Source of the DNA: Chloroflexota bacterium
GTDB taxonomy: Bacteria; Chloroflexota; UBA11872; VXNJ01
Direction of reading: 5' to 3'
Assembly (NCBI GenBank): GCA_965261345.1
Contig: OZ253449.1
Location: forward strand, 1,152,001-1,216,000
Length of the DNA: 64,000 nt
The notes under the pieces are model-generated. The model ran no database searches. It saw only the letters and a program-made list of their open reading frames with translations, and had not been told where the DNA came from. The translations under genes were made by a program, and so were the position numbers. Position 1 is the stretch's first letter. Each line of letters starts with the position of its first letter. Positions 34,920 to 39,062 of the stretch are shown here, piece by piece.

Positions 34920-35429
34920 TTAGCGTTTGACCCAAAACGCCGCGAGCAAATCGGCACTCATTTTGGCGAGCGCGCTGTCACTGGGATTTGTCACTACGAT
35001 TACCTTGGTTCTCGCTACTTTGTCGTGCACCGTCTGGCCGTCGTTGTCTAAATACTTCCACCAATAGATCGCTCCCAGAAAGACCGGCGCGAAAAAAACC
35101 TGGATGAGCCCGCGGATCGCTACCGTTTCGTTGGCCGCTGGACACGAGCTTTCGCGATCAACGATTCGCAAACCCATGACGGCCTTGCCTGGACTGGCCC
35201 CATAGACGACGTAGAAGAACGGCAGGTAGCCCAATCCCACGACCGCGTTGACCACCATCGCGATGATAAATACTGCAAAACCGAAGATCGGAATCTCGTT
35301 CAGGGTGGCAGCGACCAGGTAAAACAGCGAAATGACTGCACTGGCCAGGACCAAATCGATTCCCAGCGCGAGCAACCGCGCAATATCCTCAGCCGGATAT
35401 CCGTCGACTGGTTGCCGCGCCATTCCCAT
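34920..35429 (-). CDS. RDD family protein
   Basis: RLLALGID, SPGKAVMGLRIV, QTVHDKVART; TM helices. Confidence 0.85.
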   Translation of the reverse strand: MGMARQPVDGYPAEDIARLLALGIDLVLASAVISLFYLVAATLNEIPIFGFAVFIIAMVVNAVVGLGYLPFFYVVYGASPGKAVMGLRIVDRESSCPAANETVAIRGLIQVFFAPVFLGAIYWWKYLDNDGQTVHDKVARTKVIVVTNPSDSALAKMSADLLAAFWVKR

Positions 35430-35853
35430 TCGATCCCATTCGCCGGTACCGACGCAACCTAGCTGGCAGCGGTATGGCAGATCCGGCAAGATTTGATTTT
35501 GTTACTACAAATCTAGTCACCGCAACTACGCCTAACAAAAACAGTACGTCAACTGAAATTTATCCATCGCCGGCCGCCATTGCGCGTGATCGCGCAGCGG
35601 CCATCGCGATGTCGACAACATTGTCAATTGACTGTCGATCGTCTGGCCAATCATCTCCAATTCAAGCTCGCTTAAGCTTTGGTTCGGCCAGATCCGGCGC
35701 GGTCCATTCCAGCCCGACAAATCGGTACATTTCGATTGATTGGGATGCGTTACCCGGATTGGTGCGACCGACGTCAGTATTGGTTTACTCGTTGGGCGGC
35801 CTTTATTCCTACACACCTTAAAAAGCCGCCCCGGACCACTAATTAGGAACTGA

Positions 35854-37167
35854 ATGCTTCAGCCGTCAACTTGGCCTCAGATCGCCTCGCGTCTGGCCGC
35901 CGAAATCGGCCAGAACGAATACGCAACTTGGTTTTCGGGATCAACCCTGTTGGCCAGTGATGATTCGTCCGTAACGATCGGACTACCCAACGCTTTCGTC
36001 CTGACCGCCGCGCAACGCAAGCATGGCGACCAAGTCGCCCATACCGTCGCTGAGATATTGGGGCGCCCCGTCAAGATCAATTTCAAAACCGCTGCGGCCG
36101 ACTCGCCGCCGGTCGGTCGGGACCCTGCGGCACTGACCCAGCCAGTCTCGGATAAACCGCAGTTGCGCCCGCAGTTCAGCTTCGACGATTTTCTGGTCGG
36201 CCCTGAAAACCAACTTGCCAACGCCACCGCCCGGGCAATTGCCGACGGCCAGTCAACGTTTAACCCGCTGTTCCTCCACGGCCCTTGCGGAGTTGGAAAG
36301 ACCCACCTCCTGCGAGCGATCGCCGCCTCGGACCGGCAGGGTGGGCCGGCGATCTACTCCACGATGGAGCAATTTACCAACCAGTTGGTACTTTCGCTGC
36401 GGAAGAATTCGCCTGAATCGCTCCGTAATCGGTACCGTTCAGCCCAGCTGGTGCTCTTTGATGATGTTTATTTCGTGGCCGGTAAAAAGGCGACCCAAGA
36501 GGAGCTCTTTCACACCATTGACTGTGTCGCCGGCAACGGCGGCACAGTCGTCCTGGCCAGCGATCGCTGCCCATCCGAAATGGCCGAATTGCCCGACCGC
36601 CTGCGATCGCGCTTTGCATCTGGCATCGTAGTTGACATCCAGCCGCCCGGGTTTGAGCTGCGTCTCGCCTTCATCGAGCGCCGGTCCCAGTTGGGCCAGA
36701 TCAGATTCCCGGCCGAGGCCCAAGCCGCCCTGGCGGCCGCCAACATTCCTGACTTCCGCAAGCTCGCCGGTCTAATCAATCGCCTGCTGGCCCAGGCTCG
36801 GCTCGACTCGCGGCAGATCGACCTGAACCAGGTGGTTAGCTTGTTGGCCCGCTACGACCAAGACGGGCAGTCAACTCGAATCTGCCCGGAGACCATCATC
36901 AATCAGGTAGCGTCCAGAATGGGGGTCGACTCCCAACTCATCACCGGCACGTCCCGCAAGCAACAGGTGGTCGCTGCCCGAAACCTGTGCGCTTACCTGA
37001 TCCGCCACCTAACCAACGCGCCACTCACGGCGGTGGGTGAAAGCCTAGGCGGCCGTTCACATTCGACCGTGCTCAACGCCCTGTCCCGCGCCCAAATTGC
37101 GCTGCAGAACGATCCACGCTTGCGGGTTATAGCCGAACAGATTGGGATTAATCCGCAAGCGCGCTAG
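35854..37167 (+). CDS. dnaA: Chromosomal replication initiator DnaA
   Basis: YATWF domain I, FDDFLVG..N, FNPLFLHGPCGVGKTHL, TQEELFHT, RLRSRF, domain IV GGRSHSTV. Confidence 0.93.
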   Translation: MLQPSTWPQIASRLAAEIGQNEYATWFSGSTLLASDDSSVTIGLPNAFVLTAAQRKHGDQVAHTVAEILGRPVKINFKTAAADSPPVGRDPAALTQPVSDKPQLRPQFSFDDFLVGPENQLANATARAIADGQSTFNPLFLHGPCGVGKTHLLRAIAASDRQGGPAIYSTMEQFTNQLVLSLRKNSPESLRNRYRSAQLVLFDDVYFVAGKKATQEELFHTIDCVAGNGGTVVLASDRCPSEMAELPDRLRSRFASGIVVDIQPPGFELRLAFIERRSQLGQIRFPAEAQAALAAANIPDFRKLAGLINRLLAQARLDSRQIDLNQVVSLLARYDQDGQSTRICPETIINQVASRMGVDSQLITGTSRKQQVVAARNLCAYLIRHLTNAPLTAVGESLGGRSHSTVLNALSRAQIALQNDPRLRVIAEQIGINPQAR

Positions 37168-37460
37168 CTAAGCTGCACCCAGAGTGGCCCGCTGTCAACT
37201 CGGCGTTCAAACACACCCGAAAGTACCCGATCAATCGACATTTGCTTGGGTCATATAAGCACCGGCTGTCGATTCATGGGTTCTTTTGGGTACACCATTC
37301 AACAACCCGTTATCGCCTCTCCAAACCCTGGGCGGTCGCATCGTTTAAGCATTGAACAGGCACTATGAATACGACTAATAACTTAAATAAATTAGTACTA
37401 GTAATTAACTTGGGCTGTCGATTCATCAGGCTGTCGACCGGATAATTTCTCATAATCGAG
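37168..37460. promoter_or_regulatory. Predicted replication origin (oriC unwinding region)
   Basis: Intergenic region next to dnaA with five TGTCRAY repeats, AT-rich tract 37364-37410, trio-like TAGTACTAGTAA adjacent to a GGGC spacer and two tandem boxes. Confidence 0.75.
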
Positions 37461-37498
37461 CGAGCGCAACAAGGGTCGGCATTGGAGGGATCACGGTA

Positions 37499-37642
37499 AT
37501 GGCCAGACGAGTTCGGCACAAGGTGGCCGCCAAACACGATCTACCGCCGTTGGATCACATCCGCAGCGACATCGTCCGCATTGTCGTTATCGGGGTGATC
37601 GTCATGGCCCTGCTGATACCGGCCTACCTGGTAATCACCTAG
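37499..37642 (+). CDS. Small membrane protein (47 aa), absent from ORF track
   Basis: GGAGG RBS at 37484-37488; MARRVRHKVAAKHDLPPLDHIRSDIVRIVVIGVIVMALLIPAYLVIT*; single C-terminal TM helix. Confidence 0.72.
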   Translation: MARRVRHKVAAKHDLPPLDHIRSDIVRIVVIGVIVMALLIPAYLVIT

Positions 37643-37646
37643 CGTC

Positions 37647-39062
37647 TTGGGGGCGTCGGCGAGCGCCCAGCTGGCCCGGGTTAAGGCCAGTGAGGCTCGC
37701 CTGCTGGGCCTGATCCGGGGAGGGTACGGCAACACCGGCAGCACTCCGGTGGCCTATACCCGATCCGACGTTGCGGCACGTGGCCGGCAGCGCCTTGCCC
37801 GGCTGCGCCAGTTCCTACAACGGTCCGGCGATCCACAGTGCGCCCGACCGGTGGTGCAGGTGGCCGGAACCTCGGGCAAAGGGTCGACGGCGCAATTTAT
37901 CAGCTCCCTTCTCTTGGCCGGTGGATTGCGGGTAGGTGTGCACCAGACCCCCTACCTGCAGAGTCCCACTGAAAAACTGGTTATCGGGCATCGCCTGGCA
38001 ACTGCCGACCAATTTGCTGCGGCAACCAACCGACTGTTTGTTGGTATCGATCGCTTCAATGCCGTCGGTGCCGGATTCGATATGCGTTACGGGGCGGCGT
38101 GGGTGGCCTTGACGTTTGATTACTTTGCCCGCGCGCGGATCGATTTACTGGTGCTCGAATGCGGGGCTGGAGCGCGTTTTGATCTAACCAACGTGACCGA
38201 TCCGGAGGTGAGCGTGATCACCCGGATCGGTCTGGATCACCAGGGTTCGCTTGGCCCGGATATTGCCGAAATCGCCTGGCACAAGGTCGGAATTGCGCGA
38301 ACGAAACGCCCGTTGATAACGGTTGTTCAGGAGCCGCCCGCCCAGGCCGTGATCGAGGCCCAGTCCGACCGGATTGGCGCGCGCCTTACCACCTTGCGCG
38401 CTGGTACCGACTGGACCCAACGCTCGTTGGATGGCGGGTTGGTCGAATTCCATTACCATCGCGACGGGTTGGAAATCGGGCCGCTGCGCCTGCGCGCCCT
38501 GGGGGGCTGGCAGGGCGAAAACGCCGCTTTAGCCTGCGCCGCGGTCGCTGAGCTGCTAAACAACGGTTGGCCGATCGATGTGGCCAACCTGGCCGGCGGG
38601 TTGTGCGGGGCGCGCATCCAGGGCCGGATGGAGGTGGTGCAGAACGCCCCGGAGGTGATATTGGACGGGGCTCACAATCCCCAGAAGGCGCGCGCCCTAG
38701 CCGATTCACTGGCCGCCAGGTTGGCCGACCGACGGCTGATCGCGGTACTTGGGGTGATGGGTTACAAGCCGCCCCGGGGAGTTGTTGGTGGGATCGCCCA
38801 GATGGCCGAAACTGCGATATTTACACAGGCTGACGTTCACCTAAAGACCGCCCACCCAGCGGAAGCGCTGCTGTCACAGATCGGTGCCGGCGACGGGTTG
38901 GCGATCGCCGATCCAATGGCGGCAATTGAGACCGCGATCCGCCTGGCCGGACGAGATGGCGTTGTCTGTGTGGCCGGGTCGCTGTTCTTGGCCGGTCGCG
39001 TACGCGAGCGCTGGTATCCGACCGAGGAGGTGGTGGCGCAGGCTACTCCTTGGCCGGTCTAG
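37647..39062 (+). CDS. folC: Folylpolyglutamate/dihydrofolate synthase
   Basis: VAGTSGKGST, ECGAGARFDLTN, IGLDH, GRME, LDGAHNP, GSLFLAG. Confidence 0.9.
   Translation: MGASASAQLARVKASEARLLGLIRGGYGNTGSTPVAYTRSDVAARGRQRLARLRQFLQRSGDPQCARPVVQVAGTSGKGSTAQFISSLLLAGGLRVGVHQTPYLQSPTEKLVIGHRLATADQFAAATNRLFVGIDRFNAVGAGFDMRYGAAWVALTFDYFARARIDLLVLECGAGARFDLTNVTDPEVSVITRIGLDHQGSLGPDIAEIAWHKVGIARTKRPLITVVQEPPAQAVIEAQSDRIGARLTTLRAGTDWTQRSLDGGLVEFHYHRDGLEIGPLRLRALGGWQGENAALACAAVAELLNNGWPIDVANLAGGLCGARIQGRMEVVQNAPEVILDGAHNPQKARALADSLAARLADRRLIAVLGVMGYKPPRGVVGGIAQMAETAIFTQADVHLKTAHPAEALLSQIGAGDGLAIADPMAAIETAIRLAGRDGVVCVAGSLFLAGRVRERWYPTEEVVAQATPWPV

Follow-up and report, generated by a model that had tools for sequence, protein, structure and literature searches.

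The closest described counterpart of the locus reported here is the basal unwinding system (BUS) of B. subtilis, which comprises DnaA-box 6/7, a GC spacer and a series of DnaA-trios (PMC8287927, PMC10721633). It is already known that DnaA boxes can be species-specific, and a box with G at position 6 has been predicted within the same phylum: TTATCGAAA, proposed computationally for Dehalococcoides by Ori-Finder (PMC2275245). Nearly all of the tested boxes differ by at most two changes from the canonical TTATCCACA (PMC4285127). For T. maritima a 12-bp box, AAACCTACCACC, with a C-rich 3' end was shown experimentally (PMC4285127, PMC7561715), and bilateral oriC architectures have been reported, in which the unwinding element is flanked by DnaA boxes left and right (PMC13643167).

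We analysed a stretch of 64,000 nt (the window, to which all positions refer unless given otherwise) from the genome of an uncultured Chloroflexota bacterium (G000; a single 2.39-Mb contig, 95% complete, of which the window covers positions 1,152,001-1,216,000). The origin it contains resembles the BUS of B. subtilis in various respects: oriC lies directly downstream of dnaA; it holds two co-oriented boxes, a 4-nt GC spacer, six trios starting with 3'-GAT-5' and an AT-rich tract; and the trio-pocket residues and the arginine finger of DnaA are kept. It differs in that the boxes are five mismatches away from TTATCCACA and, being set at a 7-nt period, overlap each other, that two of the six trios have C in the middle, that four of the six base-reading residues of domain IV are different, and that there is an extra box and trio array on the opposite strand. 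With Dehalococcoides the locus shares the phylum and a G at position 6 (PMC2275245), and with the Dehalococcoides-like genomes described below a serine at position 433 of DnaA. However, Dehalococcoides represents a different class-level lineage, its box has retained T1-T2 and carries T at position 8, the sites of G000 are 3-6 mismatches away from TTATCGAAA, and the DnaA of the Dehalococcoides-like genomes that we recovered has H434A and keeps H439. T. maritima likewise combines a non-canonical box with a changed domain IV that has serine at 433, whereas the sites of G000 are 9-mers that end in ACA and are predicted only. For the bilateral architectures, the part of PMC13643167 considered here describes no second trio array on the opposite strand, such as the trio-like array of G000.

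The full-text literature that was searched, in which few subscription journals are represented, yielded no paper on the origin of this genus, and neither a TN[A/G]ACA box nor two facing trio arrays were found in it; the supplements of PMC8287927 list a predicted BUS for 2070 species and may hold Chloroflexota entries. What the locus adds is a variant of the known DnaA/BUS type of origin with predicted boxes: as judged from sequence comparison, the boxes and the box-reading part of DnaA have shifted genus-wide, and the strand-opening machinery appears conventional.

The origin and its initiator

The intergenic region that we assign to oriC (37168..37498, unstranded) directly follows dnaA (35854..37167, plus strand; 437 aa; Pfam domains I, III and IV) and is bordered on the other side by a 47-codon ORF and then a folC-like Mur-ligase gene. 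The minimum of the whole-genome cumulative GC skew (genome position 1,189,328, window position 37328) falls inside it and is the basis of its assignment. So does the AT-rich unwinding tract (37362..37411, unstranded; 40/50 A+T), which is the most AT-rich 50-mer of the genome. The domain IV profile PF08299 has a single match in the genome, i.e. this dnaA, which is the only full DnaA; a second dnaA with canonical specificity is ruled out by that single match. TTWTNCACA does not occur between genome positions 1,100,898 and 1,275,554, and therefore there is no canonical cluster near the skew switch. Sites with at most two mismatches from TTATCCACA number three in 35400-37700 and zero in the intergenic stretch after dnaA, and TTWTNCACA with at most one mismatch was found zero times in the dnaA flanks of G000, three times in those of five genus genomes and 69 times in those of 25 others. 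The locus thus displays a skew switch, an intact adjacent dnaA and an AT-rich element, with a cluster of lineage-specific boxes instead of canonical ones, and there is hardly any doubt that it is a real, DnaA-dependent oriC.

A preliminary description of this DNA, made from its letters, had proposed a probable oriC and had noted that canonical boxes were missing near dnaA; both statements stand, and the skew switch that it had asked to be computed does not lie elsewhere beside canonical boxes. Its expectation that standard origin finders could miss such an origin is right for scoring with TTATCCACA, which would fail at 3-5 mismatches per site, but adjacency to dnaA and skew together locate it as far as this intergenic stretch. 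Of the three other genus genomes that consist of a single contig, G003 and G006 have a local skew minimum at most about 1 kb from the 3' end of dnaA. The minimum of G002 is found at 604 kb, 84 kb off, because of an IS-flanked inversion (or misassembly): the displaced segment lies between two inverted 1.7-kb IS-like copies, 99.9% identical (605.5-607.2 and 686.9-688.6 kb), and folC has moved along with it. This 83-kb segment (G002:C1:605511-688600) adjoins oriC and has reversed skew, which a recent inversion or a misassembly explains.

Some further observations concern the neighbourhood. The gene dnaN (G000:C1:1723015-1724010) is located about 534 kb from dnaA. The small ORF just before the folC-like gene (37499-37642, plus strand; 47 aa with a hydrophobic C-terminal half) is present in all six genus genomes read and has no Pfam match over the cut-off, and in G001 (C66, L004) an insertion of about 340 nt, with a short ORF in it, separates oriC from dnaA. 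No ParB match (PF02195) was recovered from the four single-contig genus genomes (G000, G002, G003 and G006), the sister genome G013 has one just after oriC, and the parS pattern was not found in G000. Sister genera carry a parA-like gene after oriC, and the best match in G000 is 435 kb off (G000:C1:754126-754908); the genus seems to have lost an origin-linked ParABS along with the change in DnaA. The DnaA ATPase domain has four further matches, all weak and of the same score (G000:C1 188164, 223824, 238429 and 2318783), which are presumably IstB of an IS21-type element, a family that we assume from the Pfam overlap.

The residues of E. coli DnaA that read bases are R399, P423, D433, H434, T435 and H439 (PMC2533591, PMC7561715). 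Aligned to PDB 1J1V and numbered as in E. coli, the DnaA of G000 has P423T, D433S, T435S and H439N, so that only R399 and H434 of the canonical six are kept. We found 16 DnaA proteins of the clade, 15 of which include domain IV, and these have a residue other than proline at 423, S or T at 433 and S at 435 throughout (15/15) and N at 439 in 14/15, at 55-60% identity to the query; the two dnaA copies of G001 are duplicates (98.9% identical). In 35 other loci of the class position 433 is Asp in 35/35, position 423 Pro in 32/35 and position 439 His or Tyr. Of the 88 class genomes in which domain IV was matched, those of the genus have the seven lowest scores. The trio pocket, for which we used the residue list of PMC10721633, is kept in an alignment to 8BTG (E183, N187, N196, R202, K222, E228 and the arginine finger), with I190 and I193 changed to V and L. 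The corresponding residues of G000 (E172, N176, V179, L182, N185, R191, K211, E217 and R253) are invariant in 5/5 genus proteins.

Composition of the predicted boxes

The five 9-mers to which the preliminary description had drawn attention are all present at the positions and on the strands reported there: GAGTTGACA (37193..37201, minus strand; score 7.4 on the relatives' matrix described below; not aligned as conserved), CAATCGACA (37232..37240, plus; 10.7), GAATCGACA in two copies (37267..37275, minus, score 10.2, and 37416..37424, minus, without conservation in relatives), and the weak site CGGTCGACA (37432..37440, minus; 5.5). The two copies of GAATCGACA lie in a 14-nt repeat that is exact, as had been claimed (37264-37277 and 37413-37426). 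The weak site abuts GATAAT (37441-37446), which is aligned in 5/6 genus genomes and is a possible -10 element of the downstream genes; a sigma-70 promoter scan of 35450-37700 did not return a full site. Three more box-like sites on the plus strand fall outside the RTYGACA pattern of the preliminary description and were absent from it: CATTCAACA (37296..37304), which has the highest score of the region (13.7), and the sites at 37343-37351 and 37350-37358, which together form the conserved unwinding module discussed below. Upstream of dnaA a box-like pair, CAATTGACA and CGATCGACA (35622..35641, minus), is aligned in 5/5 genus genomes having the upstream region and probably represents autoregulatory or oriC1-type sites. 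Another conserved upstream element, ACAAA-N5-ACATT (35713-35732, in 5/5 genus genomes), may be a further box pair or the site of a regulator.

Enrichment of RTYGACA against the genome background had been put forward as a check, and the outcome was divided. G000 contains the motif 1257 times (0.158 per 300 bp). Five or more occurrences within 300 bp are reached at no more than two places, one being this locus and the other a coding stretch at 1,798,966. But when the freedom of a post-hoc choice is granted (any 7-mer with two two-fold degenerate positions), 160/300 random 293-nt genomic windows and 15/200 first-order Markov simulations of the locus also reach five. The motif was picked afterwards, and therefore the count by itself is weak and evidence from outside the locus is needed. 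Motif discovery on dnaA flanks of relatives, also suggested beforehand, did not provide it: unsupervised EM on 11 genus flanks converged on an AAATT low-complexity motif and did not recover the box.

We then compared homologous sites. The region after dnaA was obtained from 6/7 genus genomes (the dnaA search gave no match in G005 of the genus and in G007 of the family), and since two metagenome scans did not add a locus of the clade, these six are the basis for comparing the DNA. The 22 sites that were collected comprise 12 BUS boxes, in which position 6 was free, and 10 sites upstream of dnaA. Within these 22, T4, C8 and A9 are invariant, A7 is found in 21, and positions 1-3 are loose, which bears out the relaxed positions 1-2 of the preliminary description. 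Position 6 holds A 11 times, G 8 times, C 3 times and T not once, counts in which the upstream sites contribute a purine by construction, as the pattern used to extract them was written after viewing the alignment and prescribes a purine there. Among the BUS boxes themselves C occupies position 6 in 0/6 distal and 3/6 proximal ones. The box of the genus, as predicted from these alignments, is NNNTN[A/G]ACA with position 6 mostly A or G; the earlier formulation of a box re-coded from C6 to G was correct in that position 6 has moved away from C, but the replacement is A or G and not strictly G.

A matrix built in a leave-one-genome-out manner (17 sites, relatives only) and applied to the region of G000 with the threshold set at three levels recovers 9, 7 and 5 sites, including the sites of the preliminary description and, in addition, 37296 and 37350. 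It places the region in the top 0.016-0.067% of 330-nt windows, where 7-11 other loci equal or beat it, i.e. the region is among the top 8-12 and not the single best. In the dnaA flanks the ratio TN[AG]ACA:TNCACA is 48:7 for five genus genomes (G004, which has no upstream DNA, was left out) and 92:92 for 25 genomes of ten other genera. The flanks of the other genera are strongly C-enriched with respect to the 22% background of G000 and those of the genus are not, their C share of 7/55 giving P = 0.054 for depletion, a value that, like the other flank P values, overstates the significance because kin are not independent. The loss of C6 enrichment in the genus is therefore firm; a preference for G is not. 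Taking these comparisons together, it is probable that the sites are the DnaA boxes of the genus.

Two other readings have to be weighed against these data. DnaA may not have been re-coded at all, having simply lost discrimination at position 6 (and 1-3), so that it would use low-affinity TNNACA sites in which A and G accumulated by drift. The persistence of C6 in 3/22 homologous sites, the near-background C share of the flanks, the same trend in sister genera without a change in the protein and the domain IV scores of the genus, the seven lowest of the class, all fit such a loss, which we regard as tenable but not probable. However, C6 is missing from all six distal BUS boxes and T6 from all 22 sites, and the substitutions are fixed across 15 proteins of 55-60% identity to the query, which suggests selection. 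The second reading holds that the GGCTGTCGA repeats are sites of another protein, a regulator or a methyltransferase recognizing TCGA or GANTC, within an otherwise ordinary oriC. Beyond the 9-mer the copies do share flanks (GGC in three, CAGC in four), they are not conserved in relatives, and the region contains 5 TCGA and 2 GANTC. We nevertheless consider this very unlikely, as the sites score highly on a matrix derived from relatives' BUS and dnaA-upstream sites. Some relatives have TCGA and GANTC counts as low as 0, and over the whole genome neither word shows a skew (ratios 1.08 and 0.96), so that methylation sites are not supported by these counts.

Predicted unwinding modules on the two strands

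On the plus strand, the distal BUS box GTTTAAGCA (37343..37351), found at the homologous position in 6/6 genus genomes, and the proximal BUS box CATTGAACA (37350..37358; score 13.3), set at a 7-nt period, are followed by a GC-rich spacer, GGCA (37359..37362; 4 nt in 6/6), and by six DnaA-trios (37363..37380; top strand CTA TGA ATA CGA CTA ATA), all with A or C as the middle base on the bound (bottom) strand. The same arrangement, in which two boxes ending in ACA and set at a 7-nt period precede a 4-nt GC-rich spacer, CTA-first trios and an AT-rich tract, occurs on the dnaA strand in 6/6 genus genomes, in each of which box-box-4 nt-CTA is the top candidate of a scorer with the spacer fixed at 4 nt. 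In sister genera the BUS points in the same direction, with near-canonical boxes set at 8-nt periods. A box of the lineage type lies 4 and 11 nt from the first trio, i.e. within 16 bp, on the plus strand in 6/6, and a run of six trios as in this module arises in 0.0005 (0.05%) of shuffles. The trios conform to one of two published rules. By the strict rule of 2021 (at least three consecutive 3'-NAN-5' trios) no such run was found in the module's own register in any of the six genomes; what qualifies is confined to an off-register run in G004 and, in G000, the array on the minus strand. By the rule of 2023, which admits A or C in the middle, as C is accepted by B. subtilis DnaA (PMC10721633), there are six trios in G000, six in G002 and four in G003, and only the first two or three are in register in G001, G004 and G006.

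The distal box is degenerate in the sequence of the window, and a 37349 G>A allele restores the consensus ...ACA; it was recovered, in two studies, on contigs of runs X3 (depth 6) and X5 (depth 2.8, 19 nt from the contig end). Run X1 has the sequence of the window and may be its source, and run X4 does not cover 37349. The depth of these runs, which were available as contigs, is flat. With good confidence we take the plus-strand module to be the main BUS, and its conservation in the genus suggests that it is probably the ancestral, working one.

The preliminary description had instead read the order of elements on the minus strand as matching the B. subtilis system. A BUS-like module is indeed present and the minus-strand order was quoted correctly, but the genus-conserved module is on the plus strand, on the other side of the AT-rich tract. 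A repeated BUS search with spacers of 0-16 nt on both strands returned two candidates in G000. The second consists of box 37416-37424, an 11-nt distance and a trio-like array, TTA CTA GTA CTA ATT (37390..37404, minus), which is absent from 5/5 other genus genomes. This module could be the working BUS of the species, alone or together with the plus-strand one, in which case a single tract would carry two filaments facing each other, one per strand. Among the candidates of G000 the minus-strand module alone has five strict 3'-NAN-5' trios, its 11-nt box-to-trio distance equals the distal-box distance of the genus and falls in the 10-13 bp peak given in PMC8287927, shuffles yield four NTA trios in 1.1% of cases, and the distal box of its plus-strand counterpart is degenerate in the haplotype of the window. 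Yet it is restricted to G000, an intact plus-strand distal box exists in two other runs, five N-T-N trios arise in 12% and at least three in 64% of shuffles of the AT-rich stretch, and it has no proximal tandem box (the starts of the minus-strand boxes 37416 and 37432 lie 16 nt from each other, with a 7-nt gap between the boxes, which do not abut). We consider a working minus-strand BUS unlikely.

Initiation from the plus-strand module could proceed as follows, the steps being modelled on B. subtilis and also on E. coli. DnaA-ATP would bind dispersed NNNTN[A/G]ACA 9-mers, intergenic as well as upstream of dnaA, through the altered major-groove residues of domain IV. By homology with the B. subtilis BUS, two protomers on the co-oriented overlapping boxes (37343-37358) would seed an ATP-DnaA filament, which would cross the 4-nt GC spacer to the six bottom-strand trios (37363-37380), whose bases the conserved domain III pocket would capture; the adjoining AT-rich tract would then melt and the helicase be loaded there. 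The boxes at 37416 and 37432 may serve as an extra right-hand DnaA platform of the species of G000, which would make the origin bilateral and may in addition contact the downstream genes' promoter, and the upstream pair at 35622-35641 may autoregulate dnaA. As a whole, a DnaA-dependent oriC with an altered domain IV, NNNTN[A/G]ACA sites and a plus-strand BUS is in our view the probable explanation and the best one.

Changes in protein and box, and their significance

To relate the two changes we searched 401 Chloroflexota genomes and inspected 30 whose domain IV scores were low. Three of the 30 (G117, G128 and G178), which we infer to be Dehalococcoides-like, box and gene order being among the grounds, carry Ser at 433 and, after dnaA, five repeats each of the TTTTCGATAAC type; TTTTCGATAAC is the reverse complement of TTATCGAAA, the box with G at position 6. 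G232 has Asn at 433 and A6 boxes. A rule by which residue 433 decides position 6 was rejected on several counter-examples: G170 and G372 have Asn at 433, yet keep TTATTCACA; T. maritima has Ser at the 433 position and a box that contains C (PMC4285127); and in sister genus g3 the distal BUS box has A, G or T at position 6 while the RDHT..H signature is intact. Since position 6 is relaxed in g3 with a canonical protein, relaxation would have preceded the protein change, and as sister genera are partly relaxed with a canonical protein, causation by the protein change is unproven. Separately, in small-genome Chloroflexota (L198-L215, of f22, f51, f60, f68, f46, f52, f61 and f14) many signature helices of DnaA are strongly altered (RSAS, RNPS, RTAA, KNHS, TAKA), which suggests several further lineage-specific boxes.

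The most far-reaching reading would be that P423x, D433S/T and H439N switched position 6 from C to purine and dropped positions 1-3, independently of Dehalococcoides, and that a second, opposite-strand BUS faces the ancestral one. We hold this combination to be decidedly unlikely. If true, two filaments could open and hold both strands of one 50-bp AT-rich tract, and with the ancestral distal box polymorphic in the population the origin would have been caught while changing polarity.

The significance of the locus lies in a small clade where the predicted box and four of the six base-reading residues have both moved, and the pocket that reads the trios has stayed untouched. Sister genera serve as near-canonical controls, and another lineage of the same phylum provides a parallel case. 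This makes the recognition code of DnaA boxes testable by a few swaps in a purified domain. Annotation of these origins needs the NNNTN[A/G]ACA motif together with the A/C trio rule, and the possible facing second BUS bears on the loading of two helicases at one origin. The clade also offers an orthogonal initiator-origin pair.
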